From positions 7,364-71,363 of the forward strand of contig JBNKCR010000129.1 in assembly GCA_050287845.1 (NCBI GenBank): a stretch of 64,000 nucleotides of DNA, written 5' to 3'. This DNA is from Polyangia bacterium. Lineage in GTDB: Bacteria > Myxococcota_A > Polyangia > JAAYKL01. Numbering within the stretch: position 1 is the stretch's first letter; every line of letters begins with the position of its first letter. A program made the translations under genes and the position numbers. Below are positions 3,982 to 27,603 of this stretch, one piece after another. The notes under the pieces are model-generated. The model was not told the origin of the DNA, made no database searches, and saw nothing but the letters and a program-made list of their open reading frames with translations.

Positions 3982-4998
3982 TCAAAGTGGTAATTTAAGT
4001 TGCCTGGGAATTCTGGAGAAATACACGGAGAACCCGGCTTTCTGAAACGCTATCGCACTGTTTTCTCCGGCGCCCGGACTGAGAAACACCGTTTGCACAC
4101 CACAACTTCTGGCAAACTGGATGAGCCCGGTCACATTTTCGGGCTCTCCGAAACGAAAGTGTTCTCCACGGGGAAGCATGTCCGTTTCCCGTCCGCAGTG
4201 GCAGGTGGGAATCTGACTGTTGGTGGTAAAATCTGATTTTAAAAAGGCGTCCTTCGGAACAATGACCACCCCGTCAACGGGCCACCGTCGATTCAGTCGT
4301 TTCACGGCGAGTTTTTCACCGGCGCAGATAGCGACTTCCCGCAGCAGGGCATACGACCGCCGATGGGCCCATAACGGGTATTCGCAATCGGACAGCGCTC
4401 CGACCACATCGAAAAGTGCTGTTGCGGAGTCGTACGTTGCGGCCAGCGCGATGTGCGTGGTATCAGCCTGGGCTTTAATGGCATCCAATAGTCTTGGCTT
4501 CATGGTTCTGGGAGCCGGAGGCCGCGAAAGAGCCGGGACAAAGTCGACAACCATAATATCCCACTTCCCCCGATGCACTGCCGGGCCAAGGAGAGGTGCG
4601 GTGGTTCTGATGCCGGATGTATAAAGGATTTTTTTTTCTTTAAACGTGATTTCCAGCATGGCTGCCCCGGGTCCCATCCCTGATGGCAGCAGACGCAGGT
4701 CCATTTTGCCCAATTTAAACAGGCGTTCGTAAGACACGGCAATGGCATCCATATGCTGACGCCGATTGCCAAGGGTGGCGACTGCAATATCCGAGCCGAT
4801 GATACGCCTGGTTCTGGCTTTCACCTTCATGTTCAAATCCGAAAAGAAGAGCAGTCCCGGATTCTGACTGCCGTTGAATGCCAACGGCGTTCCGGGCAAC
4901 TTAAATCCGTTGTCGTAGACTATACTTCTGGGGCGTTTGTCGGCGCTGCGTAGAAATATCAGGTGTTGGTCCAACTTTTTATCAATTATGTCATCCAC
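3982..4998 (-). CDS. hypothetical protein
   Basis: 338-aa ORF with no competing long ORF on the other strand; no diagnostic motif recognised. Confidence 0.5.
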   Translation of the reverse strand: MDDIIDKKLDQHLIFLRSADKRPRSIVYDNGFKLPGTPLAFNGSQNPGLLFFSDLNMKVKARTRRIIGSDIAVATLGNRRQHMDAIAVSYERLFKLGKMDLRLLPSGMGPGAAMLEITFKEKKILYTSGIRTTAPLLGPAVHRGKWDIMVVDFVPALSRPPAPRTMKPRLLDAIKAQADTTHIALAATYDSATALFDVVGALSDCEYPLWAHRRSYALLREVAICAGEKLAVKRLNRRWPVDGVVIVPKDAFLKSDFTTNSQIPTCHCGRETDMLPRGEHFRFGEPENVTGLIQFARSCGVQTVFLSPGAGENSAIAFQKAGFSVYFSRIPRQLKLPL

Positions 4999-7052: not shown

Positions 7053-9797
7053 ATGGCAAACGAACCCGTTGGTGTCCGTCTGAAAGAAACGGCGGAAGGA
7101 AAACGTCTGTTTCTAGAACCAAGTGTCCGATTGAATCAGTGGCGGAAGTGGGGGCCATATCTGAGTGAGCGGCAATGGGGAACGGTGCGAGAAGACTACA
7201 GTGACAACGGGGCGGCGTGGGAGTTTTTTCCCCACGATCACGCCCGTTCGAGGGCTTATCGCTGGGGAGAGGATGGAATAGGCGGTATCTGCGACAATCA
7301 CCAGATTCTCTGTTTTGCACTGGGGATGTGGAATGGGGTGGATGATATTCTGAAAGAGCGGCTTTTCGGACTGACCGGCAACGAGGGAAATCACGGAGAG
7401 GATGTGAAGGAGGTGTATCACTATGTGGACAGCACTCCCACGCATTCGTATATGCGGTTTTTGTATCGATATCCTCAGGGGAAGTTTCCCTATGCCGATT
7501 TGGCCACTGCGAAGCGCAACCGGGACAAGGATCGCAATCAGTTTGAATATGAACTTCTGGACACGGGGGTCTTTGACGAAAACCGGTACTTCGATATTGA
7601 AGTGACGTACGCGAAGCAATCCGAAGAGGATATTGTTATTCAGATTACAGCGCACAACCGGGGTGCGCAGCGAGCGCCACTCACCATATTGCCCACGTTG
7701 TGGTTTCGCAATCTGTGGTCATGGGGACTGCCGGGAAAAAACCGTCCCACCATTCAAAAATTAAGTGATACGTGTGTCAGAGCCCACAGCGATGAACGCC
7801 AGTTCGGCGATATGTATCTGTATATTGATGATGCGGATGAAGTGCTGTTCTGTAACAACGAAACCAACATGGAGCGATTTCATTGGGGCAGCAATCATGG
7901 CGCCCCTAAAAAAGATGCCATTAACAATTATATTACCCGGAAAGGTGGCAGTTACAATCTGGATCCCGACACGGGGACCAGAGCCTCCTTTCATTGCAGG
8001 CTGGAAATAGATGGCGGTGCCAGCCGGCGAGTGACCCTTCGTCTGAGCAGAACCGAGCAGGATACGCCGTTTCATGCTGCGCAGGGAATTATTACTCAGC
8101 GACAGGCGGAGTGTGACGCGTATTATGAAGAACTGTTTCGCGCAAAGAATCTGGACGACGAGAGGAAGTCCATTTCCCGGCAGGCATTTGCGGGAATGCT
8201 CTGGAGCAAGCAGTTTTATCACTATGTGGTCGAAGACTGGCTGAATGGCGATCCCCTTCCGCCGCGTCCGCCGGAGTCCCGGAAATACGGTCGAAATGCG
8301 GGGTGGAAGACCCTGTACAATGAGGACATCATTTCGATGCCGGATAAATGGGAGTACCCCTGGTTCGCCACCTGGGATCTGGCGTTCCATACGGTAACGT
8401 TTGCCCATATCGACCCGGACTTTGCCAAGCATCAGCTGCGACTGTTCACCTGCGAGTGGTTTATGCATCCCCTCGGACAACTGCCGGCATATGAATGGAA
8501 TTTCAACGACGTGAATCCACCGGTCCATGCGTGGGCCACCTGGCGGGTATACGAGATGGAGCGGGAACTGTTCGGTGTTGCGGATTCGACCTTTCTCACC
8601 CGGGTGTTCAGCAAGCTGCTGCTGTATTTCACCTGGTGGGTCAACCGCAGGGACGCTGAGGGGAACAATCTGTTTGAAGGTGGATTTCTGGGGCTCGACA
8701 ACATCAGCGCCATCGATCGGAGCAATTTGGATCTTGTGGGAAATGAAACGCTGGAACAGGCCGATGGTACGGCATGGATGGGAATATTCTGTTTGAATAT
8801 GCTGCGGATATCCGTCGAATTGGGAACGTTGAACGCAACACCGGCGACGGGGCGCGGCAACACCTATAGCGATTTGGCGTATAAATTTTTTCAGCATTTC
8901 CTGCTGATTGCCAATGCCTTCAATACCCTGGGACTTTGGGATGAGGATGATGATTTCTATTACGATGTGCTCAGAGTACCTCGGTCCACCATAAAGAATT
9001 ATCCCGGAAACCCGTCCGGCTTTGAGACCATTCCGCTCCGTATCCGATCCATGGTTGGGCTGCTTCCCCTGGCTGCTGTGGAACAGATTCCCCATATCGG
9101 CCAGCTCAGTGGGTCCACGGATTTCCGGGACCGGGTGCATTGGTTTGTGAACCATCGCCCGGATTTGACACAGAACCAGAACATTTACCTGGATGCATCC
9201 AATGATAATTTATATCTGTCTCTGGTAGGGCCGGAGCGGATGAAACGGATTCTGGCTCGCATGGTCGATCCCAATGAGTTTTTCAGTGATTTCGGCATCC
9301 GGTCGCTTTCCGCTGCACACGCATGGGAAAGGCAGCCATTTAAAATGCCTTACGAATTGTATGCCGAAGGCGGTGGGACGATTCAGCCGGAAGTAAAATA
9401 TCTGCCTGCGGAATCCGATACGGGTATGTTCGGTGGAAACTCCAACTGGCGAGGCCCGGTTTGGATGCCGGTGAACTATCTGCTCGTTGATGCATTGCAG
9501 AAACACCAGGCGTATTATCAATCACAAATCACCATCGAGTTCCCCATAGGCTCGGGTCAGCAATGCGAGCTCAGTGTGATTGCCAGGGAAATTGCGCGTC
9601 GACTGGTTGCCATCTTTCTCTCTCGCGACGGGCAGCGACCCGTGTATGGGAGTACCACGAAGTTTCAGAACGATGACAACTGGAAGGACTTCATTCTGTT
9701 TTACGAGTATTTTCATGGCGACAACGGCGCGGGGATTGGCGCCAGTCACCAGACCGGATGGACAGGTCTGGTGGCCAACCTGATACTGGAGCAGTAA
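7053..9797 (+). CDS. GH63-family glycoside hydrolase (mannosylglycerate/glucosylglycerate hydrolase-like)
   Basis: 914 aa; strong GGAGG RBS; N-terminal block WGPYLSERQWGTVREDYSDNGAAWEFFPHDHARSRAYRWGEDG characteristic of bacterial GH63/MGH proteins. Confidence 0.75.
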   Translation: MANEPVGVRLKETAEGKRLFLEPSVRLNQWRKWGPYLSERQWGTVREDYSDNGAAWEFFPHDHARSRAYRWGEDGIGGICDNHQILCFALGMWNGVDDILKERLFGLTGNEGNHGEDVKEVYHYVDSTPTHSYMRFLYRYPQGKFPYADLATAKRNRDKDRNQFEYELLDTGVFDENRYFDIEVTYAKQSEEDIVIQITAHNRGAQRAPLTILPTLWFRNLWSWGLPGKNRPTIQKLSDTCVRAHSDERQFGDMYLYIDDADEVLFCNNETNMERFHWGSNHGAPKKDAINNYITRKGGSYNLDPDTGTRASFHCRLEIDGGASRRVTLRLSRTEQDTPFHAAQGIITQRQAECDAYYEELFRAKNLDDERKSISRQAFAGMLWSKQFYHYVVEDWLNGDPLPPRPPESRKYGRNAGWKTLYNEDIISMPDKWEYPWFATWDLAFHTVTFAHIDPDFAKHQLRLFTCEWFMHPLGQLPAYEWNFNDVNPPVHAWATWRVYEMERELFGVADSTFLTRVFSKLLLYFTWWVNRRDAEGNNLFEGGFLGLDNISAIDRSNLDLVGNETLEQADGTAWMGIFCLNMLRISVELGTLNATPATGRGNTYSDLAYKFFQHFLLIANAFNTLGLWDEDDDFYYDVLRVPRSTIKNYPGNPSGFETIPLRIRSMVGLLPLAAVEQIPHIGQLSGSTDFRDRVHWFVNHRPDLTQNQNIYLDASNDNLYLSLVGPERMKRILARMVDPNEFFSDFGIRSLSAAHAWERQPFKMPYELYAEGGGTIQPEVKYLPAESDTGMFGGNSNWRGPVWMPVNYLLVDALQKHQAYYQSQITIEFPIGSGQQCELSVIAREIARRLVAIFLSRDGQRPVYGSTTKFQNDDNWKDFILFYEYFHGDNGAGIGASHQTGWTGLVANLILEQ

Positions 9798-10165: not shown

Positions 10166-11380
10166 ATGTATTCTTCAACAATTAAGCCGAATCATCAGGA
10201 TCTGATGGGAGAAGGCAAGCAGTGGAGCGGTGGCATCGGTGCATTTGAAACCGTTCAGGCCGGGATTATTCCCTGCAGGAAGTCGGGTACCAACGGAACA
10301 GAAACGGTTTCATCCAACTGCTGGACAATCTGTTTTACCGCGGATTGGGTGGTGGTGGTGATGTGCGCGGGGGATTCTCAGATGCCACTCTCCTATGTGG
10401 CCGCGAATCGGGCGGAAAATATCGGGATGTCGGTACTGCAGTATGTGGATGTCCAGGGTGCTGCGGACACAATGGATAAACATCTGGATTCATATCTCGC
10501 CCCCGATGGCATTCTGGCGATGGATGTCATCAAGCTGGCCAAAGATGAAATACAGAAATTGGCCTCGATTTCGGAAACCAGATTCAAGGGCGCATTTCAC
10601 GGTGAACTGTACAATCTGCATAAAACGGGGCTGTCCATGGCCATTGGCGTGGTGTGTATAGACCGGTCCAGTCGCGACGCAGTGCTGTGGAAGTGTGGCA
10701 ATATCGACATCCTGTATAAGTATGGTGTCGATTATCTGTTGCAGGCGGCGTTTGAGGAGGATTCAACAGTCTGGTCCAGTAAAACCGGGTTGACGGCGTC
10801 TGCCCAGCTGTTGAAGTGCCAGGGAGTGGCGCAAATCAGCATGCGCAGCGCCGGCGCCAGGGACATGGCCTGTGCCATTTCGGAAACCAGCCTGCCGGAC
10901 TCGGAGTTCCAGCTCATTCGCACCGAGGAGGATGCCGCCTGGGTAACATGGTGTGCGACATCGGCGCCGGAAGAATTGGTGGAAATCACCAGCCAGCAAT
11001 TTGAGCACGGAAGGGAATTCACCGAAAGCATCCGGCTGGCCGAGGAAAGTGGCCATGGATTCTTTTATCTGGGCAACAGATTCTTTTCCATAGAAAATAT
11101 AGAATCAATATTCAGTGAAGGGGCTGTGGCCAGCGAGACCATGGGGCTCTGTCTGGCCAACTGTTCCCTGATAGACGATGGGTGTATTGCGCTGTTAAGC
11201 AATCTCAGATATGTGCGGTATCTGGATTTACGACACACATCCATAACCCCTGCCAGTCTCACATACCTGCAGAAATTCAAGAATCTGACATTTCTCGATT
11301 TAACTGAAACCCAAATTCGCGCCAGCCATCTTTCGGGGTTGGACTTTCCCGAAGGTATGCGGTTGAGAATCGACATCTGA
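10166..11380 (+). CDS. hypothetical protein with C-terminal leucine-rich-repeat-like segment
   Basis: 404-aa ORF; C-terminus LSNLRYVRYLDLRHTSITPASLTYLQKFKNLTFLDLTETQI has LRR periodicity. Confidence 0.5.
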   Translation: MYSSTIKPNHQDLMGEGKQWSGGIGAFETVQAGIIPCRKSGTNGTETVSSNCWTICFTADWVVVVMCAGDSQMPLSYVAANRAENIGMSVLQYVDVQGAADTMDKHLDSYLAPDGILAMDVIKLAKDEIQKLASISETRFKGAFHGELYNLHKTGLSMAIGVVCIDRSSRDAVLWKCGNIDILYKYGVDYLLQAAFEEDSTVWSSKTGLTASAQLLKCQGVAQISMRSAGARDMACAISETSLPDSEFQLIRTEEDAAWVTWCATSAPEELVEITSQQFEHGREFTESIRLAEESGHGFFYLGNRFFSIENIESIFSEGAVASETMGLCLANCSLIDDGCIALLSNLRYVRYLDLRHTSITPASLTYLQKFKNLTFLDLTETQIRASHLSGLDFPEGMRLRIDI

Positions 11381-11664: not shown

Positions 11665-14154
11665 ATGAAATTTGACCGCTTTCTTCAACGCTGGGCGAGC
11701 ATCGTCTGCCGCTACCCTGTTCGCATCACTGTTTTTGCCCTTGCTTTTGCCCTTGCCGGGGCATTTCTCGCCACTCACATTAAAATAAAGAGTAGTTTCA
11801 CCAATTTGCTTCCGGACAATTCGTCTTCGGTCATCGATTTAAAGGAGATTTCCGCACGCATGGGGGGAATGGGCACCCTGATGATTCAGGTGGAAGGCAA
11901 GAGCCGAAACGACTTGCCGGCCATGGAGAAGTTCGCCGATGATCTGGCGAAGCGAATGGCTGCGTACCCTAAAGATGAAGTGCTTTTTGTGGACTACAAA
12001 GTAGATGCGCCCAAAGGGTTTTTCGAGCGAAATAAATACCTGTATGCCGATAAACAGGAGCTTTCGGATATTTACAAAGAACTCAAGGATTACATCGGCG
12101 ACAAAAAAGCCAAAGCCAATCCGTTCTACATCGATCTCGGAGATAACGACGACGACGAAAAAAAAGAAGCGCTGAATGTGGATGAGTACCGGGAGAAGTA
12201 CAACGAAAAGCTGAGCCGTTTCGATAAATACATTGATGGATATCTTACCAACGAGGCCGGGGATATGCTCATTGTAGTGGTGAAAACCCCCGGCGAAAAT
12301 ACCGGCGTGGATTTTGCGCTTCGCTTTGTGGACAAAGTGGAAAAGGAGATCGCCCAGCTCAATCCCAAAAAGTATTCCAAAAACATGGAGGTGTATCTCA
12401 CCGGAGAGCTCAAAACCCTCCCCGAAGAATACAACGCCCTGCGCAATGACATTCTGTTTGTGTCCAATCTCTGCGTGCTGCTGGTGTTACTGGCCGTATC
12501 CATCTATTACCGGTCGTTCAAGTTGACATTGGTTCTCAGTATTGGCCTGGTGTGTGGGGTGACCACCACCTTCGGTATTGTCTACCTGGCCATCGGATAC
12601 CTCACGGCGGCAACGGCATTTCTTGCGGCGGTGGTTTCCGGGAATGGCATCAATTTTGGCATATACTTCCTGGCGCGGTTCATTGAGGAGCGTGCCAATG
12701 GCAAACCCATGGAAGATACCATCGCCACCACCCTGAAGAGCACGGTGGTGTCGGTGGCCACGGCCGCATTTGCCGCTGGCGCCTCCTATGCATCCCTGAT
12801 GGCCACCCAGTTCAAGGGATTCAACCAGTTCGGGTTCATTGGCGGTATTGGCATGTTGATTTGTCTGGTGTTTGCGCTGACCCTCAACCCCGCATTGCTG
12901 GTTCTGATGGAACGATACTGGCCACTTTCGCAAAAGACGATAAACTCGTTTAAAAACAAAAAGAGTCTGGCGCATGTGGCCGCATGGCTGGTGGAGAACC
13001 ATTCCAGAAAGCTTCTGGTGTTCGGTGCCGTGGCCATTCTGGTATCTACCGTATCCCTGGTGATGTTTCTCCGGGACCCCTTTGAGTACGATTTTCGAAA
13101 TCTTCGCAATCAGTCTTCTCAGAAGTCCGGATCCGGTAAGCGGAGTGGCGAAGCCGAAGCCATTCTGGGAGAGCGGTCCAGTCCACACATCGTACTGGCC
13201 GACAATCTGGAACAGGTGCCTCTCATTAAAAAAGCGCTACGCAAGTATTACAAGGATAATCCTGACGAGCGCTGGCAGGCCATTAAATTCATTAAAACCA
13301 TTTACGACTATCTTCCGGGAACGGTGGCAGAGCAGAAAGAAAAAATCGATATTCTCAATAAAATCCGCGCTCTGGTGCTGAAGAACATCGATTTGCTCGG
13401 TGACGATAAAAAGCGGGACGAAATCATGGAGTTTGTTCCGGAAAAAGAGTTGTCGCCGGTGACGGTGGAAACGGTTCCCGAAGAGCTGGTGCGGCCTTAT
13501 GTGGAGCTGGACGGCACCCGGGGCACGTTGCTGCTGGTGGATATGAACGGCAGTATATGGCGCAAGGAAACCATGGAACGGTTTTCACGGGTCATCAAGC
13601 GGATTCGTCTGGAAGATGGAACAGTTATCCGTTCCAGCGGCAAGGTGGTCATCTTTAACGACATGCTCGATTTTGTGGCCAACGAAGCCCCCTGGGCCAC
13701 CCTGGGGGCGTTCATTGCGGTGCTCATTATTATCGGTATTTCTTTTCGGCGGCTCAAGCATTCGCTCATTGTGGGGGGCGCCATGATGACAGGTGTGATT
13801 CTCATGATGGGCGTTGCAGTGGCGTTTGAACAGAAACTGAACTTCCTTAATTTTATCGCCATTCCCATTCAATTCGGTATCGGGGTGGATTATACGGTGA
13901 ATATCTACGCCCGTTTCCTGCAGGAAGGGCCGGGGTCTATGGGCAGCATCCTGCGAAAAACCGGAGGGGCCGTTCTCATTACCAGCACCACCACCATCAT
14001 CGGGTATGGGTCCATGTGGTTTTCCATCAACGGGGCCATCAACTCCATGGCAAACCTGGCCAACATTGGCGAAGTTACCTGTCTGTTTACAGCCATGTTG
14101 CTGATGCCCGCCTTCGTTGCGGTGTTCGCCCACGGGTTGAAAAAGAAGGCGTAG
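11665..14154 (+). CDS. MMPL-family RND-superfamily exporter (HpnN-like)
   Basis: 829 aa; N-terminal TM helix, large periplasmic loops and two blocks of about six TM helices with sterol-sensing-like GxxxG-rich segments. Confidence 0.8.
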   Translation: MKFDRFLQRWASIVCRYPVRITVFALAFALAGAFLATHIKIKSSFTNLLPDNSSSVIDLKEISARMGGMGTLMIQVEGKSRNDLPAMEKFADDLAKRMAAYPKDEVLFVDYKVDAPKGFFERNKYLYADKQELSDIYKELKDYIGDKKAKANPFYIDLGDNDDDEKKEALNVDEYREKYNEKLSRFDKYIDGYLTNEAGDMLIVVVKTPGENTGVDFALRFVDKVEKEIAQLNPKKYSKNMEVYLTGELKTLPEEYNALRNDILFVSNLCVLLVLLAVSIYYRSFKLTLVLSIGLVCGVTTTFGIVYLAIGYLTAATAFLAAVVSGNGINFGIYFLARFIEERANGKPMEDTIATTLKSTVVSVATAAFAAGASYASLMATQFKGFNQFGFIGGIGMLICLVFALTLNPALLVLMERYWPLSQKTINSFKNKKSLAHVAAWLVENHSRKLLVFGAVAILVSTVSLVMFLRDPFEYDFRNLRNQSSQKSGSGKRSGEAEAILGERSSPHIVLADNLEQVPLIKKALRKYYKDNPDERWQAIKFIKTIYDYLPGTVAEQKEKIDILNKIRALVLKNIDLLGDDKKRDEIMEFVPEKELSPVTVETVPEELVRPYVELDGTRGTLLLVDMNGSIWRKETMERFSRVIKRIRLEDGTVIRSSGKVVIFNDMLDFVANEAPWATLGAFIAVLIIIGISFRRLKHSLIVGGAMMTGVILMMGVAVAFEQKLNFLNFIAIPIQFGIGVDYTVNIYARFLQEGPGSMGSILRKTGGAVLITSTTTIIGYGSMWFSINGAINSMANLANIGEVTCLFTAMLLMPAFVAVFAHGLKKKA

Positions 14155-14336: not shown

Positions 14337-17177
14337 TTATCCCTTTTCGGCTTTCAGCATGTGAACCACCCGTGAAATGCCGGTGACGATGATGAGACCG
14401 AGGGCGTAGGACATAATGATGAGACTGCCGGTGGAGGTTTTGATGTAGGTATCGCCCGGGCAAAGGGAATAGGAAAAGAGCAGGTTGGAAAATACCACCT
14501 GCAGCAGTAGCAGCGCCGCCGCCAGGGTGGCGGGCAGATACAGATTCGGGCGGCTATCGGGGGTCGATGGCCGCACGGTGAGTCGCACTGTCAGCCAGGC
14601 CAGCAGCAGGGGCTGCAGATAATAAAACACGAGTAGCGCAACACTCACGGGAAGAACCATTGGCATCCGGTAGCCGATAAATGCCTTGAGCACCATGAAG
14701 TTTCCGGGAGTGAACAACTGTCCCTGCATGGTGAGTGTGTGAACAAAGAACACAATAATCAGAAACGCCACATACACATGCCGTCGGAGGCTCCCTTCGA
14801 TATAGGCATTGTGTGCGTACAGCCATCTGAATACCAGTGCCGAGACGAAAAGTACGGTGAACTCTCCCCCTGTTTGCTGCTGGGTCATTACCGCAAGCAG
14901 CAGCAGTAGTAGCCAGTAGTCCCCGTGACCGGGTTTCTCTTTTTTGAGGGCCACAATCAGGAACGCAACCGTTGCCGCGAACAGCACTGCCAGCATGAGA
15001 TTGGAGTCCATGGCACTCAATCGATAAAACAGATGAAGCGAATACACCGCCGCCAGTGCGCTGTAACGAATGGGACGTCCGGCGACACCTTTGTAATGGC
15101 GGTTGATCCAGTATCCGAATCCGGCCAGCGTCACAAAAAAGAGAATACTGTGGCTGAGGGAATTGGTGCGAAGATAAATGGGTAGCTGCCTGAAAAAGTT
15201 GAGGCCGAGTTCGGGAATCTGGCACACGCCGGCAAAGGCAATGATTCCCAGCAGGGGCAAGGCTTTCACCAGCCGGTTTGCCACCGCGCCCGCGTCTGTG
15301 GACTGGTGATAATACGCGGCCGCCAGCAGTACAATATATCCCAGTGGGATAACGTATTGATAGTATCGGCACGGGGTGGCAATGACGAATGCGGTACTGA
15401 GGCCCCACAGCAGCAACGCCCCAACGCCGGGAGCTTCCGTTTTTGTTCGGGAAGCAGTTTTAAGGGCAAATACCAGATACAGCATCGCCGAGATTCCCAG
15501 TGTGGCATACAGATACAGCGCCCGTACGCCCGCAGACTGCTTGAGATACACCTGCGACGGAAACCAGTAAAAAACAAATGAAACTGCGATGGCAGCGATG
15601 GACACAATGCCGGCAGGTCGGAGAATCTGTCGGTTCAGCGCGGGATACAGGGGCATCCCCAGAAGCAGGCTTCCCGCAAACAGCCACCATGAATACGCTT
15701 TGGGCACCGTGAAAATTGCAGCCAGACAAACGATGGCGATGCCGGTGTGCCACAGGGATACGGGGCGGTTGAAGCTGGATGCCCAGAGCAATATCAGGAC
15801 TATGGCCAGAAGAATCCTGGGCAGCAGCAACAACGATGCGCTGGCATCGAATTTAATGCGATTCACCCCGGCAAGGAGCGCATCAATGGATGATGTGTCC
15901 ACGGTTTCACTGTCGCCGAACTGAGCGTTCAATGCGGTGTATAGCTTTTGCTTCTGGTCAAAAAGCTCGCGTTGGGCCAGACTGATCTGGTCCTGATATG
16001 CGGCGGTGAAAATATCCGGGAGCGATCCGCAGTTCTGGGTGGCGAGGGGTGCGCCTGTGAGCACCGATACAATGTTGACAATATCCACCTGGGGAATGGA
16101 CGCCAGCGATGTGTTTTTGATGCCTTCGCCAAAGGCCCACAGAAACGAGGTCTGTTCGTCCTTGCTGATTCCCCCATGCTGTCCGCGTTCGGTGGTGCCA
16201 TGATCACTGAGTACGAGCCACGCAATTTTTTCATTTTTAAATTCATCGGTCAGGTGGAGAAGTTCGGTTTCCAGATGCTGGTGCAGTTCCCTGAGAGGTT
16301 TGCCGTACACACCGTATTTGTGAGACATATGGCCGGTTTCTGCGATATGAATGGTAATGAGACCATTGCGTTTATCGCTGATGGCGGCTCGAAGCTTTTC
16401 CATCATGGTATCTGAGCCGTACTCCACGAAAAGCCCGAGATCCCGTCGGGTGAAGGAATCGTTAATCCCTCGCTTGAAATTGTCCAGCCATAGCGCTTCG
16501 CCGATATGATAGGTGCGCCGACCAGTCATCTGAACATTCTCGAAAATATTGTTGGCCACGGCTTCTTCGGCAAGAAAATCGGATTTTACCTGTACCAGCG
16601 ATGGCTGATCCCCGGTGCCAAGGGTGTAGACACCGGCGATGGTGAAGGTGAAGCTGTCGAGCAGCACCTTTGCCACAAAACCATCATGTTCGGCTTTGGC
16701 GTGCACTCTCTTGAGATTGCGCAGGGCGGTGTCATTGCTCAGGTCATCGTAAATGAACATTACCGTCTGAGATGCAATCGCCTGTCGATCGGTTGGCTGG
16801 GGGGCGAGGTTTGCCACTACTCGGTTCTGAAACCGGAGTTCGAACCATTCGCGTTCATTCAATAGGAACGCGAACGCTACGCCGAAACAGAAAAAAATTA
16901 TTGAGAGTGATGTAATGACCCTGGGTTGGGATAGTCTGAATTCTTTTTGCACAATAACCCCGTTTACGCCGTTTACCCGATACCGGTTGCTGCAATCTGC
17001 TGATGCTGCAGCGACGAAAAGGGATATAGCCTTAAGCCAATAAATTACCAAGGAGAAAAACCGATGAACCTGGCGCTCAGAACGGGGCGATTGGGCAATT
17101 CGCATCATCATTTCGACCACTGTCATCGGGACTGCAAATGAAAAAGGGCAGATTTGGCTTTGTTTGCACTTTTCCAA
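14337..17177 (-). CDS. membrane protein with N-terminal alkaline-phosphatase-superfamily domain (phosphoethanolamine-transferase / PigN-like architecture)
   Basis: 946 aa; TM anchor near aa 87-106; catalytic-type motifs (MFIYDDLSND, HIAETGHMSHKYG, LVLSDHGTTERGQHGG); then about 500 aa of polytopic membrane domain. Start uncertain (alternative Met at 17105). Confidence 0.7.
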   Translation of the reverse strand: MEKCKQSQICPFSFAVPMTVVEMMMRIAQSPRSERQVHRFFSLVIYWLKAISLFVAAASADCSNRYRVNGVNGVIVQKEFRLSQPRVITSLSIIFFCFGVAFAFLLNEREWFELRFQNRVVANLAPQPTDRQAIASQTVMFIYDDLSNDTALRNLKRVHAKAEHDGFVAKVLLDSFTFTIAGVYTLGTGDQPSLVQVKSDFLAEEAVANNIFENVQMTGRRTYHIGEALWLDNFKRGINDSFTRRDLGLFVEYGSDTMMEKLRAAISDKRNGLITIHIAETGHMSHKYGVYGKPLRELHQHLETELLHLTDEFKNEKIAWLVLSDHGTTERGQHGGISKDEQTSFLWAFGEGIKNTSLASIPQVDIVNIVSVLTGAPLATQNCGSLPDIFTAAYQDQISLAQRELFDQKQKLYTALNAQFGDSETVDTSSIDALLAGVNRIKFDASASLLLLPRILLAIVLILLWASSFNRPVSLWHTGIAIVCLAAIFTVPKAYSWWLFAGSLLLGMPLYPALNRQILRPAGIVSIAAIAVSFVFYWFPSQVYLKQSAGVRALYLYATLGISAMLYLVFALKTASRTKTEAPGVGALLLWGLSTAFVIATPCRYYQYVIPLGYIVLLAAAYYHQSTDAGAVANRLVKALPLLGIIAFAGVCQIPELGLNFFRQLPIYLRTNSLSHSILFFVTLAGFGYWINRHYKGVAGRPIRYSALAAVYSLHLFYRLSAMDSNLMLAVLFAATVAFLIVALKKEKPGHGDYWLLLLLLAVMTQQQTGGEFTVLFVSALVFRWLYAHNAYIEGSLRRHVYVAFLIIVFFVHTLTMQGQLFTPGNFMVLKAFIGYRMPMVLPVSVALLVFYYLQPLLLAWLTVRLTVRPSTPDSRPNLYLPATLAAALLLLQVVFSNLLFSYSLCPGDTYIKTSTGSLIIMSYALGLIIVTGISRVVHMLKAEKG

Positions 17178-17300: not shown

Positions 17301-19436
17301 ATGGCTCATTTTGGTGAAGTTTCGATTGTCGCAACTGCTCTTTTAACACTGATTGCGGTTTGGTTGGGTCTGTTCAGAAAAGATGCGAAATCTGATGATG
17401 CATTACGACGAATCATTCTGGCTGCAGCCACCATGGGGACCGTGGCTGGTGCTGTGCTGGTGTTTTTACTGGTGACCCACGATTATCGCGTTGCATATGT
17501 GCGGATGTATGCGGCTCGCTCCATGACATTGGGATATCTCGTCACCGCTCTGTGGGGAGGCCAGCAGGGGTCGCTCATGTTCTGGGCAATGCTTCAGTCA
17601 TGGTGCATGGCCGCAGTGGCATACTGGTTCAGGGAAAAGGATGAGCGCCTTATCCGGGTTGCCCTTGGAATTCTGGGGGGGATTGCGGTGTTCTTCTGGC
17701 TGCTGGTGCTGACTCAATCGAACCCGTTCAAGTTGAACGGTGAGGATCCGCTCACCAGTTCCGGTCTGAATCCATTGCTGCGGAACCCGTATATGGTGTT
17801 TCACCCGCCCACGCTGTTTCTGGGATTTGCCGGCTTCTCCATCCCATTTGCGATTGGACTGGCGGCCATGGTCCGGGGTCGGAGCGACAGCGAGTGGCTG
17901 GTGCCGCTTCGCCCGTTTGTCCTGGTGGCATTTGCCTTTCTCAGTGTGGGCAATATTCTGGGAATGGTCTGGGCATATGAGGAACTCGGGTGGGGCGGAT
18001 ACTGGGGATGGGACCCGGTGGAAAACGCGTCCCTGATGCCCTGGTTTACCGGCACTGCACTGGTGCACGCCATGATGGCCCAACGCCGATGGGGAATCAT
18101 GAAGCGCTGGACGCTTTCGCTGATTGTTGTAACCTGGCTGCTCACCATTTTTGGCACCTTTCTTACCCGCAGCGGCATCATTCAATCGGTGCATGCATTT
18201 TCTGATGCCACGGAGGGACCGTATCTGCTGGGGATCATCGGACTGGTGCTGGTGGCGTTTATCATTCTGATGATTGGGCGGTACAAGTCTCTTCATCCCG
18301 ATATGAAAGTGGAGCTCTGGTCCAGACAATGGATGTTTGAGCTGTCCAACTGGCTTTTCACTGCGGCGCTGCTCTTTGTGGGGCTGACAACCCTGTGGCC
18401 GCTGTTTCACGGGCTTCTCGAAGGGGAACAGGCCATGGTACCACCGGCCTTCTTTAACAAGTGGATGGTCCCCATTGGTCTGACGCTGTTTGCCACCGTG
18501 GGTGCATGTACGTTGCTGCCCGGGTCCAAAGCCTTGCGTCGGCCCGAAATTAGGCGCACCGTGCTGTCTCAGGCCATTGTGATTTCGATACTTTCGGCGG
18601 GCGCGGGCCTGCTGGTGGGGATACATCCGAATCTCGGTGGCGCGATGTCTGTGGCACCGGCAATCTCTGTTGGTCTGATTGTATTTGTGATGTTGTCGTT
18701 GTTCATTCAGATGCGAAAGAGTTATCTGGCGGGAAGTCGGACACGGCTTGGCGGGCAAACCGTGCACCTGGCGATGGTGTTGATGTACATCGGGTTTACC
18801 GGTGCGGGATTTGTGACAGAGAAAAAGGCCAATGTGGGTATGGGCGAATTCATGTATCTCGACGATGTGAAAATCACGTTTCTCGGATTGCGCTCCGACG
18901 TCAATTATGAGCGGGAAGCGCTGTTTGCCGACCTGGAAGTGGTGGAATCCACTGGCGCCGTTACTCTGGTTTCTCCGGCCCGTTATCTGTATCATTCTCA
19001 TCCGAAGCAGCCCACCAGCGAGGTCAATATTCTGATGGGCGTTAAACGCGATTTGTTTTTTATTCTTGGGGAAACGGAGGCCCAGACCGGGCGGGCGGTG
19101 ATTAAAGTATTGTCAAATCCACTGGTGATCTGGATTTGGCTTGGCGGTGTGCTTCTCGTGTTTGGTGCGCTACTGGCAATGTCCCGGGCAGGACTCAGAG
19201 ATGTTCTGCAAATGAAGCCCGCTATGCGGCAGCGGCTGTTTCCACTGGGCGTTGGTGCGATAGCTGTCGCGGCGGTATTGCTACCCGGCTATCTGTGGCT
19301 GGGGGTCCCGGGCGCCATAGCCTTTTTCGGTGTCCTCGGGCTTTTGACCGCTTTCGGTCTTCTCATGTATGCCGTGGTGAAAAAGACGACCATTGGGGAT
19401 GGCAATACAATTGAGCATGCGGATGACGGCAATTGA
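17301..19436 (+). CDS. ccmF: cytochrome c-type biogenesis heme lyase CcmF
   Basis: 711 aa; WWD-domain signature WGGYWGWDPVENASLMPW (aa 231-248); collinear with E. coli CcmF including the N-terminal WGGQQGSLMFW block. Confidence 0.85.
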   Translation: MAHFGEVSIVATALLTLIAVWLGLFRKDAKSDDALRRIILAAATMGTVAGAVLVFLLVTHDYRVAYVRMYAARSMTLGYLVTALWGGQQGSLMFWAMLQSWCMAAVAYWFREKDERLIRVALGILGGIAVFFWLLVLTQSNPFKLNGEDPLTSSGLNPLLRNPYMVFHPPTLFLGFAGFSIPFAIGLAAMVRGRSDSEWLVPLRPFVLVAFAFLSVGNILGMVWAYEELGWGGYWGWDPVENASLMPWFTGTALVHAMMAQRRWGIMKRWTLSLIVVTWLLTIFGTFLTRSGIIQSVHAFSDATEGPYLLGIIGLVLVAFIILMIGRYKSLHPDMKVELWSRQWMFELSNWLFTAALLFVGLTTLWPLFHGLLEGEQAMVPPAFFNKWMVPIGLTLFATVGACTLLPGSKALRRPEIRRTVLSQAIVISILSAGAGLLVGIHPNLGGAMSVAPAISVGLIVFVMLSLFIQMRKSYLAGSRTRLGGQTVHLAMVLMYIGFTGAGFVTEKKANVGMGEFMYLDDVKITFLGLRSDVNYEREALFADLEVVESTGAVTLVSPARYLYHSHPKQPTSEVNILMGVKRDLFFILGETEAQTGRAVIKVLSNPLVIWIWLGGVLLVFGALLAMSRAGLRDVLQMKPAMRQRLFPLGVGAIAVAAVLLPGYLWLGVPGAIAFFGVLGLLTAFGLLMYAVVKKTTIGDGNTIEHADDGN

Positions 19437-20124
19437 ACGAATAGACCACATATCCATTAAAGAGGTGACCAAACTGTTCGGCGCGCAGGCAGCGCTGAAG
19501 AAAGTGTCACTCGATTTCCGAACAGGGGAAACTGTGGGGATTATCGGCCAGAACGGTGCGGGAAAGTCCACGTTGCTTTCCATTCTGTCCACGGTGATGA
19601 AACCGACTTATGGGTGCATGGAAGTGAATGGCGCCGCCGCTGGTCCCCTGTTGCGCGGCAGAATCGGGGTGTTGTCCCACAAGGCATTGGTATATCCCGA
19701 GTTGACCTGCGAAGAGAATCTTACCCTTTTTGCTGATTTGTACGGAGTCAATCGAAGCACGGTTACCCGTCTGGAAAAACAACTGTTTCTGACGGAATTT
19801 TTTGCAGATCGGCCCGCTGGAGTGTTGTCGCGGGGGCAGTTGCAGCGACTTTCGCTGGCCAGGGCGCTGATTGCTTCTCCGGATGTTCTATTGTTGGACG
19901 AACCCTCTTCAGGCCTGGATGGAAAGTCCACCCGGTTGATTGAAACACTGGTTGCCGAACATCGCGAGAAGCAGGGGATTTCCCTTATGGTGTCTCATGA
20001 TCCGGCACTGGTGGCGCACTTGTGTACTCGGGTTGTACTGCTGGTTCAGGGGCAGGTGAAAGTGGAATGCGGCGCATGTGACGCAACAGAAATTGCCCGG
20101 ATGCTGGAGGAGAGAGCGCTGTGA
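19423..20124 (+). CDS. ccmA: heme exporter ATP-binding protein CcmA
   Basis: Walker A GQNGAGKST, ABC signature LSRGQLQRLSLARAL, Walker B LLLDEP; overlaps the ccmF stop. ORF opens at 19393; start at MTAIERI chosen. Confidence 0.85.
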   Translation: MTAIERIDHISIKEVTKLFGAQAALKKVSLDFRTGETVGIIGQNGAGKSTLLSILSTVMKPTYGCMEVNGAAAGPLLRGRIGVLSHKALVYPELTCEENLTLFADLYGVNRSTVTRLEKQLFLTEFFADRPAGVLSRGQLQRLSLARALIASPDVLLLDEPSSGLDGKSTRLIETLVAEHREKQGISLMVSHDPALVAHLCTRVVLLVQGQVKVECGACDATEIARMLEERAL

Positions 20125-20798
20125 ACTGGATGAAAACGGCCTGGTGTATTTTTTTGAAGGATTTGCGTATCGAGCGAAAAACCGGGCAGATTGTACCCAC
20201 TACGTTTGTGTTTGCACTGCTGGTGGTGGTGCTGTGCGCGTTTGCGTTTGATTTGAATAAAAACACGGTGTCCAATGCCGGTGCCGGGGCGTTGTGGCTG
20301 GCCATTTGCTTTTCGGGCGTTCTGGCGGTGGGCCGAAGTTACCTCAAGGAAAGAGAAATGGGCGTATGGTCCGGGCTGCTCCTGTCGCCCGCTTCGAAGA
20401 CCGGTTTCTATCTGGGAAAACTACTGGGGCTCATGGTGTTCCTGTTGTTGGTTTCCGTATTGCTTCTGCCACTGGTGCAGCTCTTTTTTCATGTGTCCGT
20501 TTTTTCCAATCTACACCGCATCGCGCCCATTCTGCTGCTTGGTATTCTCGGATTCTGCGCTGCTGGCGCGCTGTTTGGTGCCATGATTGTGAGAACGTCC
20601 GTTCGGGATCTGGTATTGGGAGTGGTCCTTCTGCCACTGATATCGCCCGTGCTGATTCTGTGTTCCAAAGCTACCCAGCTGGCCGTTTCCGGTGCAGCGT
20701 TTTCGGCGATACTGGAGTATTTGCGACTGGTGGTAGTGGCGGACGTGCTTTTCCTTGCAACTGGCATATGGTTGTTTGAGTTTTTGATGGAGGACTGA
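20121..20798 (+). CDS. ccmB: heme exporter membrane protein CcmB
   Basis: 225 aa, six hydrophobic helices; ATGA start/stop overlap with ccmA. Confidence 0.8.
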   Translation: MNWMKTAWCIFLKDLRIERKTGQIVPTTFVFALLVVVLCAFAFDLNKNTVSNAGAGALWLAICFSGVLAVGRSYLKEREMGVWSGLLLSPASKTGFYLGKLLGLMVFLLLVSVLLLPLVQLFFHVSVFSNLHRIAPILLLGILGFCAAGALFGAMIVRTSVRDLVLGVVLLPLISPVLILCSKATQLAVSGAAFSAILEYLRLVVVADVLFLATGIWLFEFLMED

Positions 20799-21594: not shown

Positions 21595-22917
21595 CTAATC
21601 CCAATTGGCCGACTTCGTATCCCATGCGGGATCAGAACAATAGGGGCAACTGTCGCCTACCAGCATTCCTTTTCCGGCGTCGCTTTCATCCCCTTTGAGG
21701 GTCCATTTGAGCCATGCCAGAATAATTTTCGTGAAATCGCCGCTCCCGCCCTGGCCCAGGTCGCCACCGTGTCCGATGTCCTTGCTGAAATACATAATCG
21801 GATTTTCAAGCTTGCTGATGGCATCGTAGTCGCGAAGTCCATTTTCGTAGGCCATATCACTGGGGCCGCCCTGCACAAACAGCACTGGCGTGTGAACGGT
21901 CTGATAAAAGGCATTGTCGGCCGCGAACATGCCGCTGCTGGTCAGCCCCCAGTTTGTCATCCGGGGATCACCTGCGGTGCCTTCGGCCATTAATCCACCG
22001 CAGGAGAAACCGTTGGCTGAGATTTTTGTGGGGTCAAGCTTGTGATAGTAGGGACTGCAGGGTTTGTGATTCTGCTCAATCGCCCAATCAATATATCTGA
22101 TTAGCGGTGCGCCCATTGCAGTCATGTCTCCGGTATCCATGCTGCGATTGCTGGCGTCGCCAGGGGTGCCATCCGCTACAACGAAAAATCCGTAGGAGGC
22201 AATTTCACCCATTGCTGCGGAGTTGGACCCGCCGTTTCGGGAACAAGCACCCTCACCCCATACAAATATGGGGAACCGTTCCTGGGCGTCCAGGTCGGCG
22301 GGACGGTAAATGGTGCCCTCGTTGATGCCGGAATCCGGATTTGTCTCTACCACCACATCATATGGACCGCTTCCGCTGGCGTTTATGCTGCTGACTTTCT
22401 GTGAATCTGTGCAGCTTCCATCAATATCCGGGCCGTCCACGTCACCGTCCGAATCTGTATCGGTGTCGGTGTCTGTATCGGTGTCGGTGTCGGTGTCTGT
22501 GTCTGTGTCGGTATCTGTATCGGTATCAGACTCCGGAATGGTCGCGCCTTCGCAACAGCGCAGCTCTCCTTCGCAGACGCCATTTCTTGCGGTGCCGTCC
22601 CACGAAACGCAGTGGGCCAGACATTCGTATGCGCAGATATCATCTGCATCGGAGTCCGTGTCTGTGTCTGTGTCGGAATCCGTGTCGGTGTCAGTGTCCG
22701 AATCTGTGTCGGTATCGGTATCCGAATCGGTATCAGTATCGGTATCCGAATCTGTGTCGGTATCGGTATCGGTATCCGAATCGGCGTCGCTGTCCGAATC
22801 AGAGTCGTCGGACGAGGAATCGTCTCCGGTGGTGTCCACTCCGCATGTCGGAAATGCGGTACATGCGAAAATCAGCAAAAATGCATACAGTACCATTTTT
22901 ATATTTTTTAACTTCAT
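21595..22917 (-). CDS. secreted alpha/beta-hydrolase esterase with Asp-Thr/Asp-Ser repeat linker
   Basis: Start chosen at MKLKNIKMVLYAFLLIFAC (signal peptide; ORF opens at 22977). Two acidic repeat tracts separated by a six-Cys segment, then a catalytic domain with nucleophile elbow GFSCGG. Confidence 0.75.
   Translation of the reverse strand: MKLKNIKMVLYAFLLIFACTAFPTCGVDTTGDDSSSDDSDSDSDADSDTDTDTDTDSDTDTDTDSDTDTDTDSDTDTDTDSDTDTDTDSDADDICAYECLAHCVSWDGTARNGVCEGELRCCEGATIPESDTDTDTDTDTDTDTDTDTDTDTDTDSDGDVDGPDIDGSCTDSQKVSSINASGSGPYDVVVETNPDSGINEGTIYRPADLDAQERFPIFVWGEGACSRNGGSNSAAMGEIASYGFFVVADGTPGDASNRSMDTGDMTAMGAPLIRYIDWAIEQNHKPCSPYYHKLDPTKISANGFSCGGLMAEGTAGDPRMTNWGLTSSGMFAADNAFYQTVHTPVLFVQGGPSDMAYENGLRDYDAISKLENPIMYFSKDIGHGGDLGQGGSGDFTKIILAWLKWTLKGDESDAGKGMLVGDSCPYCSDPAWDTKSANWD
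22425..22821 (-). repeat. coding hexanucleotide microsatellite (GAY-ACN/AGY)n encoding (D-T/D-S)n
   Basis: Runs of gtatcggtgtcggtgtctgt-type units on the plus strand (about 22440-22520 and 22640-22800), inside esterase codons 53-185. Confidence 0.8.
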
Positions 22918-23317
22918 TATATTGGTTCCTTTCAATTTGTTTTCAGGTCCCGGTTCCATTCGGGGCGAATACTCCATAAAAAATCACAGAATTTTCAGAG
23001 TTCCAGTATCCCGACAGCAAGTGAACAGCGCAGGAATAGTGACATTATTTATGCAAAATGCTGTTTTTCGGAAACGCGACGACTGCGTCGAAAAACATTC
23101 CACGCTGGTTGGTTTCAGTCTGATTGTCGCGTCGGATGCGGATTCGGAGCATATTGACTCCATGCGGATTGTCTAATAAGGAACCCATGAGAAACTGGGC
23201 TTCTGAGCATCTTTTTTTGTAAAGACATCTCAGGGGAAAATGGTAGGATGCCGTTTTTCTGAAAATCAGAAAATCACAATGTATGAACATTCGCAAACTG
23301 GAACATAGGCAACCTGC

Positions 23318-25612
23318 GTGAGTGACGATTCGAAAATTAATGAAGTGATAGCAGAGGAGCAGGCGCTCCTCTCAAAAGTAGTAGTTCATCTGACAACCTC
23401 CTCCAGAAAATCCAGTGTTTACGCCGATTATGATGCGGAATTAATCGAACTTCGGGATGCCCTGGCCGAAGCATTGCCTGAAGATGTACCGTCTCTTGTC
23501 GAGCAGATGACGCGTCTGCAGGCCATTGCGGCACAGCGGGGTCAGGGAGAAGATGTACCGGTGGATCCGGCAAGTCCGTATTTCGGCCACATGCAATTAG
23601 AAGAGGATGGCGAAATTCGGGATGTTCTCCTTGGCAAGCGTACCTACATTTCACCGGGGGATGGCATCCGTATCGTGGATTGGCGAAACGCGCCCGTGAG
23701 CCGTATGTATTACTGCTACGACGAGGGCGATGATTATGAAGAGAGTTTTGGCGGCAAGGTGCGCAGCGGCACTATTTCCACTCGCCGATCGATTACCATC
23801 ACCCGGGGCCAGTTGAGGCGCGTGGATTGTCCCCTGGGGACGTTGGTGAAAAAGGGGGAAGAGTGGATTCGGCTGCGAGAGGCCGGTGCAAAACTTTCAG
23901 GGGGACAGGGCAGTGCCATTCGGGGAACGCGGACGGGGAAATTGGGAGTGGATGCCTATGGCGACTTCAGACAGGACAAGCATTTGCCTGAGATTTCGGC
24001 CCTGCTCGACAAGGATCAGTTTGCACTGATTTCAAGTGATGAGGATGAGCTGCTTGCGGTTCAGGGAAGTGCGGGTTCCGGAAAAACCACAGTGGGACTT
24101 CATCGCATTGCGTATCTGGCATACAGCAGAACAGCTAAAGTGAAGCCATCGAATACTGTCATCATCGTATTGAACAGCGCGCTGGCATCGTACATTGCGG
24201 ATGTGTTGCCGTCTCTTGGGGTTCGCGGGGTCAAGGTCTGGACGTTTGAAAACTGGTGCTCGCGTCTGAGAAAACGGCACATCCCCGGTCTGCCGTCTTT
24301 ATACAGCGAATGGACGCCATCCATTGTGTCCCGTGTGAAAAAGCACCCGGCGTTGCTTCGCATTCTGGATGACTGGGTGGACATGCAGGACGAGACTCTG
24401 ACTGAGAAGATGCTGAAAACGGTCAGCGGTTACAATGATGCTGCCAGGGTGGAAAAAGCATGGAAAACCATTCAACGTCTGCCCATTGAGATTCGGAGGA
24501 GACGGATGCTCAAGTGGCTCGATGGCGAAGCGCGGATTGGGAGAGATACCGGTGATGGTCTTGATATGAAAACCGCGATTGCCCTCGATTCAGCGCTGCA
24601 GCGGATGGGGGAGGTGACAGATGATGTGGTGAATGACTGGGCTGATCTGTTTACGGATAAACGCCAGTTGAAGCATATGTTCGAAACCCACGCCCCGGCG
24701 GAATTTACGGAGTCGGAGCTGGATCGTGTTCATCAATGGTGCACAGATGCATATAAAAAAATATTTGATCAGATGGACGATGATGGCGAAGAGACGATTG
24801 AGGAAGATGACCGCGCAACTATTGACAGGGAAGACGACGCCATTTTGCTCCGACTTTATCAGCTGAAAAAGGGTTGGCTGCGGGAAGGGGGAAAACGTAT
24901 CGAATATGACCACATGATGGTTGATGAAGTGCAGGACTTCAGTGCGCTTGAAGTGCGGGTGTTGATTGGCGCTGTAGGGCAGAACCGTCCGATAACCCTT
25001 GCCGGAGATACAGCGCAGAAAATTGTTCGGGAAGGCGGATTTGATAATTGGGAAGGTTTCATTGACGACCTCGATGTTCAGAATGCCAGACTGGAGCCGC
25101 TTAAGATTGCATATCGGTCCACCATTGAGGTGATGGAAGTGGCGAGAGCCGTGCTCGGACCCCTTGCGGGAGATGAATCGGTGGCCACCCGTCATGGCGC
25201 CCCGGTGGAGGTTCACCAATTTTCAGATCCGGGGCAGGCGGTAGATTTTCTGGGTACCTCGCTTCGGGAACTGTTTCTCAGGGAGCCTCTGGCCAATGTG
25301 GCGATTATTGCCCGGCACGTGAACCAGGCAAAACTGTACTATCAGGGATTGAAGAAGGCGGAAATTCCCAGATTGCGTCTGGTTGTGGAACAGGATTTCT
25401 CTTTTACCCCCGGTATCGAAGTCACTGAAATCCGGCAGGTAAAAGGGCTGGAATTCGATTATGTGGTGATGGTGGAGTGTAATGAGGATTCCTACCCGGT
25501 CACCGACGAAGCCCGGCATCTGTTGCACGTGGGAATGACCCGTGCGGCTCACCAGTTATGGCTGATAACTACCGCGAATCCGTCTCAGCTCATCCCGAAG
25601 AATCTTCTTTGA
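23318..25612 (+). CDS. HelD-like UvrD-family helicase (RNA-polymerase-associated helicase IV type)
   Basis: 764 aa; GTG start; N-terminal region with IVDWRNAPVSRMYY motif; Walker A GSAGSGKTTVGLHRIAYL; C-terminal helicase motifs (LLHVGMTRA). Confidence 0.75.
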   Translation: MSDDSKINEVIAEEQALLSKVVVHLTTSSRKSSVYADYDAELIELRDALAEALPEDVPSLVEQMTRLQAIAAQRGQGEDVPVDPASPYFGHMQLEEDGEIRDVLLGKRTYISPGDGIRIVDWRNAPVSRMYYCYDEGDDYEESFGGKVRSGTISTRRSITITRGQLRRVDCPLGTLVKKGEEWIRLREAGAKLSGGQGSAIRGTRTGKLGVDAYGDFRQDKHLPEISALLDKDQFALISSDEDELLAVQGSAGSGKTTVGLHRIAYLAYSRTAKVKPSNTVIIVLNSALASYIADVLPSLGVRGVKVWTFENWCSRLRKRHIPGLPSLYSEWTPSIVSRVKKHPALLRILDDWVDMQDETLTEKMLKTVSGYNDAARVEKAWKTIQRLPIEIRRRRMLKWLDGEARIGRDTGDGLDMKTAIALDSALQRMGEVTDDVVNDWADLFTDKRQLKHMFETHAPAEFTESELDRVHQWCTDAYKKIFDQMDDDGEETIEEDDRATIDREDDAILLRLYQLKKGWLREGGKRIEYDHMMVDEVQDFSALEVRVLIGAVGQNRPITLAGDTAQKIVREGGFDNWEGFIDDLDVQNARLEPLKIAYRSTIEVMEVARAVLGPLAGDESVATRHGAPVEVHQFSDPGQAVDFLGTSLRELFLREPLANVAIIARHVNQAKLYYQGLKKAEIPRLRLVVEQDFSFTPGIEVTEIRQVKGLEFDYVVMVECNEDSYPVTDEARHLLHVGMTRAAHQLWLITTANPSQLIPKNLL

Positions 25613-27282: not shown

Positions 27283-27603
27283 ATGTCTTTTCGGGAAAAA
27301 TGGCGGCATGCATTTGCGCTGGAACCGGCTTTGCCGCCGGAGCCGGAGACACTGCCGGGTGTGCTGGAAAAATTTGCGGCACAGGTGGTGGAACGTCGGA
27401 TGGAGACACCGGCAATTCTGTTTCTGGAGATGGCGCGCCCCCTCAATTTCATTGGCAGCCAGTTGATATTTGCGGTCACTCCGGTAGCGGGGCTGTTTAA
27501 AACGGACCACGAGCTCAACGAAGTTGCCCGTGCGCTGGAACACCGGGGTGCCATTGAGAGAATGGTTCAGCGCATCGAGCAACTTTCCCTGGAACGGAAA
27601 TGA
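27283..27603 (+). CDS. hypothetical small protein (first gene of a three-gene operon)
   Basis: 106-aa ORF whose stop overlaps the start of the next gene (ATGA). Confidence 0.5.
   Translation: MSFREKWRHAFALEPALPPEPETLPGVLEKFAAQVVERRMETPAILFLEMARPLNFIGSQLIFAVTPVAGLFKTDHELNEVARALEHRGAIERMVQRIEQLSLERK

Follow-up and report, generated by a model that had tools for sequence, protein, structure and literature searches.

Can a bacterial gene encode an enzyme laid out like the ethanolamine-phosphate transferases of the eukaryotic glycosylphosphatidylinositol (GPI) pathway? This question is raised by an open reading frame (ORF) on the minus strand (14337..17177) of a 64,000-nucleotide stretch of a Polyangia bacterium genome (contig JBNKCR010000129.1 of assembly GCA_050287845.1), hereafter the window. 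Lipid-headgroup transferases of the alkaline phosphatase superfamily shape bacterial envelopes, with roles in polymyxin resistance (EptA/MCR), teichoic acid synthesis and cellulose modification, and to our knowledge all studied bacterial examples carry the membrane domain first. The initial annotation had assigned the reverse order to the window protein and called it PigN-like. We found the reverse order throughout a bacterial family, to which the window protein belongs as a rare, divergent offshoot.

Kyte-Doolittle analysis of the protein and of its family alignment put a single helix at the N terminus (residues ~12-32), then a hydrophilic region (33-370) and, within 371-865, about 15 hydrophobic segments, with no EptA-like order. 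Residue numbers of domains and motifs refer to the 871-aa product argued for below, unless ORF residues are stated. A first AlphaFold model from 6 sequences had a pLDDT of 55.7, too low to draw inferences from, and Foldseek returned alkaline phosphatase superfamily matches only. The second model, based on a 17-sequence alignment, reached a pLDDT of 74.2, with the catalytic domain near 90; its layout agrees with the hydropathy profile and its first helix spans residues 10-40. That is, the protein comprises an anchor helix (16857..16919, minus strand), an NPP-type alkaline phosphatase superfamily domain (residues ~33-370; 15843..16856, minus strand) and a polytopic C-terminal membrane domain of about 15 hydrophobic helices (residues ~371-871; 14340..15842, minus strand) in which the motifs RYYQY, MTQQ and PGDTY.K are conserved. 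The position of the catalytic motifs behind a single anchor helix and ahead of the polytopic domain, as first proposed, is borne out by hydropathy and second model alike. Two of them, HIAETGHMSHKYG and LVLSDHGTTERGQHGG, occur at residues 277-289 and 321-336 of the 946-codon ORF counted from its TTG. The K/R-rich sequence MQKEFRLSQPR ahead of the helix would, by the positive-inside rule, keep the N terminus in the cytoplasm and, since a single anchor helix follows, orient the catalytic domain towards the periplasm.

How widespread this layout is became apparent from an exhaustive hidden Markov model (HMM) search of 1.84 billion representatives, which revealed the wider family where word-indexed searches had not. 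It returned 15 proteins at E<1e-30, 617 at E<1e-10 and 1957 at E<1e-3. The shells and domain-order counts given here refer to its 150 best hits, and active-site columns to 147 aligned relatives. Domain order was classed with a simple rule based on hydropathy: in 137 of the 150, named PIGO proteins included, four or more transmembrane (TM) helices come after the catalytic domain, and in none do three or more TM helices precede it. The order is thus opposite to that of EptA, as had been claimed; no EptA-type architecture occurred among these hits, and the family profile reached PIGO proteins at E about 1e-20.

By word-indexed search, the full-length query yielded 5 relatives among 5.8 billion clusters (one 94% and four about 40% identical), a 67-sequence full-length alignment 7 hits and a catalytic-domain alignment 18. 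The low yield of the 67-sequence search was probably caused by hydrophobic words swamping the candidate list. Scanning one genome per species gave two loci, both in Myxococcota metagenome-assembled genomes (MAGs), and a metagenome scan added two more.

The relatives fall into shells. The core family, with full-length and near-full-length members at E<1e-150 and fragments at 1e-28 to 1e-87, comes from about five lineages and is rare: there are 15 representative clusters at E<1e-30, and a number of these are fragments. One fragment, 69% identical, is from a MAG of Chitinivibrionales. A second shell (E 1e-58 to 1e-75, 720-800 aa) consists of four clusters, the one that is named being a Polyangiales 'alkaline phosphatase family protein'. 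The third shell is a large group of 800-930 aa, all named members and relatives of which are Polyangiaceae, Polyangiales or Myxococcales. Proteins of the eukaryotic shell are longer (900-1125 aa) and carry the Pfam PIGO_PIGG membrane region; the named hits are GPI ethanolamine phosphate transferase 3 of Ciona, Nematostella and Trichonephila (E 1e-19 to 1e-23). In a rough, unrooted and unbootstrapped neighbour-joining tree of catalytic domains, the core family was sister to the second shell within a prokaryote-like cluster, apart from which stood the eukaryotic PIGO sequences. By sequence comparison, then, the window protein is a rare and divergent offshoot of a Myxococcota-centred bacterial radiation, and its nearest characterised relatives are the eukaryotic PIGO enzymes, to which its catalytic domain appears closer than to other branches of the superfamily. 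Hence the description as a PigN-like protein in a bacterium needs amending. The gene is bacterial and has the domain order of GPI ethanolamine-phosphate transferases, but the closest type is PIGO/PIGG and not PIGN, and the architecture is not unique, as a sizeable Myxococcota-centred family has the same layout.

We then asked whether the membrane domain is related to the eukaryotic one as well. Scans of residues 371-871 against Pfam and NCBIfam gave no match, nor did the equivalent region of Polyangiales relatives, and Pfam PigN (PF04987) and PIGO_PIGG (PF19316) did not match the membrane region at E<=1. Profile-profile comparison with hhalign linked the membrane domains of the core family and the second shell (96.9% probability over 372 columns), those of the second and third shells (95.8%), and the last 260 residues of core family plus second shell with the third shell (94.5%, versus 0.1-0.2% for reversed-sequence controls). 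Against PIGO-like eukaryotic hits the probabilities were 0.4-6.3%, and the scores of 26-28 exceeded those of the controls (14-16) only modestly. We conclude from these alignments that the membrane domain is homologous to that of Polyangiales relatives, the third shell being reached by a transitive link. Of the eukaryotic-type architecture originally suggested, the domain order therefore stands, while homology of the membrane domain to its eukaryotic counterpart is unproven (hhalign at most 6.3%). Among the hits listed in a PDB structure search none matched the membrane domain; all were catalytic-domain matches. The membrane domain is kept at about 40% identity with invariant polar motifs, which fits substrate handling better than simple anchoring.

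Pfam Phosphodiest (PF01663) matched the catalytic domain at 23.0 bits, against a cut-off of 23, and covered only residues 263-330 of the long ORF; relatives score 26-66 bits. NCBIfam gave no match for the protein. A profile of 29 catalytic domains aligned with the sequence of the Xanthomonas NPP (Xac NPP) at E 5e-23, and Foldseek with the second model against the PDB retrieved the same protein at E 6e-8, with PbgA (20.3), LtaS (19.7), EptA (19.3), EptC (18.5) and MCR-1 (18.3) ranking below NPP; LtaP and GacH were also among the structural matches, alongside LtaS. The comparison with EptA thus put that enzyme below the NPP clade. The alpha/beta core fold of the superfamily is present, and domain, profile and structure searches agree on the superfamily first proposed for the N-terminal region, with no unrelated fold among their results. 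From the Xac NPP alignment and the Foldseek ranking we assign the domain to the NPP type of the alkaline phosphatase superfamily, with a predicted threonine nucleophile.

In the profile alignment, D54, T90, D210, H214, D257, H258 and H363 of Xac NPP correspond to columns 69, 104, 207, 211, 250, 251 and 259. The predicted nucleophile, Thr104 (16641..16643, minus strand; the second threonine of FTFTIAG), aligns with Thr90; it is invariant in the core family and the second shell, and Thr or Ser in 130 of 133 other top hits. Three predicted metal ligands, D250, H251 and H259, lie in the motif S249-D250-H251-G-T-T-E-R-G-Q-H259-G-G (16170..16208, minus strand). Columns 69, 211, 250 and 251 are invariant wherever aligned, apart from one Glu in column 69, with D250 and H251 found across all 147 relatives; H259 is His except for an Arg in one core sequence. 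The spacing between the two halves of this motif is short (DHG-x7-HGG), as is typical of lipid-headgroup transferases.

Five of six metal-ligand columns are thereby conserved (D69, H211, D250, H251 and H259). The sixth is Gly207 in the window protein, within the motif H202-I-A-E205-T-G207-H-M-S-H211 (16320..16349, minus strand). This column corresponds to the zinc ligand D210 of NPP and, in the motif H-x-x-G-x-D-H-x-G-H, to the Asp. The 137 aligned proteins from outside the core family have Asp there without exception. The ten core members all have Gly, together with Glu at position 205, a residue never found at that position outside the core family. Because the paired change is fixed in ten of ten core members, we infer that a metal-binding carboxylate has moved by two residues in an enzyme still under selection, rather than that the site is decaying. 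Glu205 is a possible substitute ligand for Asp207. The pair speaks against a pseudoenzyme and suggests that the metal site or the specificity has changed.

The extent of the gene itself required a closer look. The minus-strand ORF is uninterrupted over 946 codons, and its orthologs at 94% and, among full-length ones, about 40% identity, with more than 170 invariant positions, mark it as a real gene and not a chance ORF. Its first 75 codons from the TTG have no counterpart in any of the five homologs of the first search, whose N termini lie 10-15 residues ahead of the anchor helix, and a GTG at 16952 is the sole start codon at a matching position. We therefore take the product to be 871 aa from this GTG, so that the likely coding sequence of the PIGO-like membrane phosphotransferase is 14337..16952 (minus strand, 871 aa plus stop). 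The 75 in-frame codons ahead of it (16953..17177, minus strand) are probably an untranslated 5' region or a promoter region common with the divergent ccmF; sigma-70 consensus scans of this interval found no convincing site. The divergent orientation noted at the outset is correct: ccmF lies at 17301..19436 on the plus strand.

Among known systems, PIGO/Gpi13 and PIGG/Gpi7, and more distantly PIGN/Mcd4, likewise consist of an anchor helix, a lumenal or extracytoplasmic NPP-type domain and about 12-15 helices. The motifs in common with the GPI enzymes are D-G-x-R-x-D, the T-x-T nucleophile, H-x-x-G-x-D-H-x-G-H and S-D-H-G-x(4)-G-x-H-G-G. Unlike PIGO/PIGG, the window gene stands among bacterial genes and has Gly with Glu205 for the Asp of the D-H motif, and its 871-aa product is shorter than the GPI transferases (920-1120 aa). 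The Myxococcota 'alkaline phosphatase family protein' group (720-930 aa) has the same architecture, with catalytic domains 20-30% identical, but keeps Asp207 and lacks Glu205; the window family is far rarer. EptA/LptA, EptB, EptC, CptA, MCR-1 and BcsG show the opposite order, with five TM helices first and the catalytic domain last, and the order is reversed also relative to LtaS and PbgA. The catalytic domain of EptA-type enzymes is moreover of the sulfatase type (PF00884), whereas that of the window protein is of the NPP type, structurally nearer to the NPP clade, and Pfam EptA_B_N did not match the protein.

The surroundings of the gene differ between its relatives. In the window and in the syntenic contig L005 the neighbours are an HpnN-like MMPL protein and ccmF. 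Elsewhere we found a VIT/VWA-TonB_C protein and a histidine kinase fragment (locus L001), a methyltransferase, an Svf1-like lipocalin and a serpin (L002, L003 and L006), or DUF4360 proteins (L008). At L007, which is the L004 locus, an apparent operon with overlapping stops and starts comprises a class-I S-adenosylmethionine (SAM) methyltransferase (765-1367), the target homolog (1360-3870) and a 312-aa radical SAM/SPASM protein (3867-4805). The last was considered as a sulfatase maturase and rejected, as NCBIfam scored it best against other kinds of maturase, each time far under the cut-off; the target also speaks against this idea, having a Thr nucleophile and no C/S-x-P-x-R motif. A small methyltransferase is found about 1.3 kb upstream of the target homolog in L002 and L006 too. 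The methyltransferases of the two lineages share 31% identity and are generic class-I enzymes that fall well short of every curated cut-off; for one of them the best NCBIfam hit is PmtA, a phospholipid N-methyltransferase (46.6 bits versus a cut-off of 390). This lead, found in two lineages, was set aside. Contamination by eukaryotic DNA was dismissed, given the bacterial flanking genes (MMPL, ccmFAB and a sigma-54 activator) and the syntenic bacterial contig. We recognised no GPI-pathway or PIGF-like gene in the window or the related loci. Rarity and patchy taxonomic spread suggest a stand-alone gene that moved horizontally.

In the window, the HpnN/HAE3-like MMPL/RND transporter (11665..14154, plus strand) is convergent to the target gene and closest to the hopanoid/sterol exporters HpnN and BstA (242 bits versus a cut-off of 752). 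Ahead of it a 404-aa protein is encoded (10166-11380, plus strand) that has no Pfam or NCBIfam match; both are 96-97% conserved in L005. On the other side, 17301-20798 (plus strand) holds ccmF, a ccmA-like ABC ATPase and ccmB in that order.

What, then, might the protein do? On balance we lean, with moderate confidence and by analogy to characterised enzymes, towards a periplasm-facing transferase that moves a phospholipid headgroup, likely phosphoethanolamine, onto an acceptor at the outer face of the inner membrane. The single N-terminal helix would anchor the protein and the C-terminal domain of about 15 helices would serve as a lipid-binding platform that holds the substrates. A metal centre formed by D69, D250 and H251 together with H211, H259 and E205, the last in place of the usual Asp207, would activate Thr104 for attack on the phosphodiester of a membrane phospholipid, most likely phosphatidylethanolamine (PE). 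Release of diacylglycerol would leave a covalent phospho-headgroup-threonine intermediate, from which the headgroup would pass to an acceptor hydroxyl on that outer face of the inner membrane, probably of a glycolipid or of a lipid-linked or envelope glycan. EptA/MCR-1 and LtaS work by ping-pong catalysis through a phospho-threonine intermediate, and such chemistry is presumed here on the precedent of EptA, LtaS and NPP. PE is the donor of PIGN, PIGO and PIGG; the GPI enzymes transfer ethanolamine phosphate (EtN-P) from PE to a mannose of the GPI precursor, and PIGO and PIGG require PIGF. We infer the donor, as well as the existence and nature of an acceptor.

Several observations weigh against this proposal. 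The structurally closest solved proteins are NPP hydrolases and not transferases, it is unproven at the level of sequence that the membrane domain shares ancestry with that of PIGO/PIGG or PIGN, and the N-terminal half of this domain was modelled at a pLDDT of only 40-55 in the second AlphaFold model. Loss of the canonical ligand Asp207 may have changed or weakened the metal site. The gene neighbourhood is not conserved and gives no pointer to an acceptor pathway, since the neighbours are unlike across four or five lineages. Finally, literature searches turned up no description of the bacterial family, its membrane domain or the D207G/E205 offshoot; from eukaryotes, enzymes of this kind are known.

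The structural ranking would suit a membrane-embedded lipid phosphodiesterase that, like ENPP6, ENPP7 (alkaline sphingomyelinase) or autotaxin, uses water as acceptor; it would remove the headgroup of an outer-leaflet phospholipid or sphingolipid and might serve membrane remodelling or phosphate scavenging. We consider such a hydrolase unlikely, though the strongest of the competing explanations: Xanthomonas NPP, ENPP4, ENPP6, ENPP7 and other hydrolases of the NPP clade are soluble or single-pass proteins with no polytopic domain, whereas a polytopic domain of about 500 residues is typical of the PIGN/O/G, EptA and LtaS transferases, and the nearest characterised homologs by profile search, the PIGO enzymes, are transferases. 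The window protein also lacks the insertion of about 100 residues that separates DHG from GSHG in the NPPs. A shade less likely again is the same transferase chemistry with another donor and headgroup, either glycerol-phosphate from phosphatidylglycerol, as in LtaS, OpgB and GacH, or phosphocholine from phosphatidylcholine. The structural matches to LtaS, LtaP and GacH are compatible with it, and the methyltransferase beside the gene in two lineages, with its one sub-threshold PmtA hit, could hint at methylated PE or phosphatidylcholine. Yet the closest characterised relatives use PE, and the methyltransferases, generic and little alike, are absent from the window and L001; the sequence offers no discrimination between headgroups. 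A lipid-binding or regulatory role with impaired catalysis, as in PbgA/YejM/LapC, where the alkaline phosphatase fold persists but serves chiefly for sensing or regulation, seems to us very improbable, despite the lost Asp, because Thr104 and six other active-site residues are invariant and a new invariant Glu has arisen two residues away. The degenerate active site of PbgA-type proteins was not found, and the architecture is reversed relative to their N-terminal 5-TM domain. We therefore retain the headgroup transferase as our preferred interpretation.

Other genes in the window were recorded in passing. A 1971-aa non-ribosomal peptide synthetase (55860-61775, plus strand) has, by Pfam, two AMP-binding stretches, with a DIP2-like AMP-domain match behind the N-terminal one, along with a condensation domain, two PP-binding stretches and a thioesterase; directly ahead of it lies an ABC exporter (54121-55851, plus strand), and the two look like a compact locus, possibly for a lipopeptide. 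An rve-type integrase ORF of an insertion-sequence transposase (45379-46224, minus strand) adjoins genes for 2-oxoacid:ferredoxin oxidoreductase subunits (46576-49148), which suggest an anaerobic lifestyle. A PF13941 'MutL'-family protein (27600-29378, plus strand), which is not the mismatch-repair MutL, is encoded near a 1212-aa fused hydantoinase/oxoprolinase A+B protein (31586-35224, minus strand). Two UvrD/Rep-like helicases (23318-25612 and 38990-41077, both plus strand) have long N-terminal regions that lack Pfam matches. We also detected a 914-aa GH63/MGH1-like glycoside hydrolase (7053-9797, plus strand), a 315-aa protein with a C-terminal dockerin domain (42860-43807, plus strand) and a 460-aa ORF with no family match (21595-22977, minus strand).

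These bacterial homologues would have to find their place in any account of how the GPI-anchor machinery arose. The GPI pathway was recently attributed to Asgard ancestry (PMC12872458), so in principle one may expect GPI enzymes to have prokaryotic relatives, and the finding is less surprising for it. A more far-reaching scenario, which we offer as speculation and think unlikely, is that a PIGO-type bacterial family, mainly of Myxococcota and with an offshoot patchily spread elsewhere, adds phosphoethanolamine or a related headgroup to an envelope glycolipid; relative to the eukaryotic enzymes this family would be an ancient sister lineage, an ancient donor, or itself acquired from them very early on, and the D207G/E205 pair would be a re-engineered metal site with a new specificity. 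If true, bacteria would have their own equivalent of the step in which GPI anchors are decorated with EtN-P. The replacement of Asp by Gly, fixed together with a relocated Glu, offers a natural experiment on metal-site plasticity in the alkaline phosphatase superfamily. The PIGO/PIGN layout in a bacterial family whose closest characterised relative is PIGO points to an envelope modification made by Myxococcota and a small number of lineages besides.

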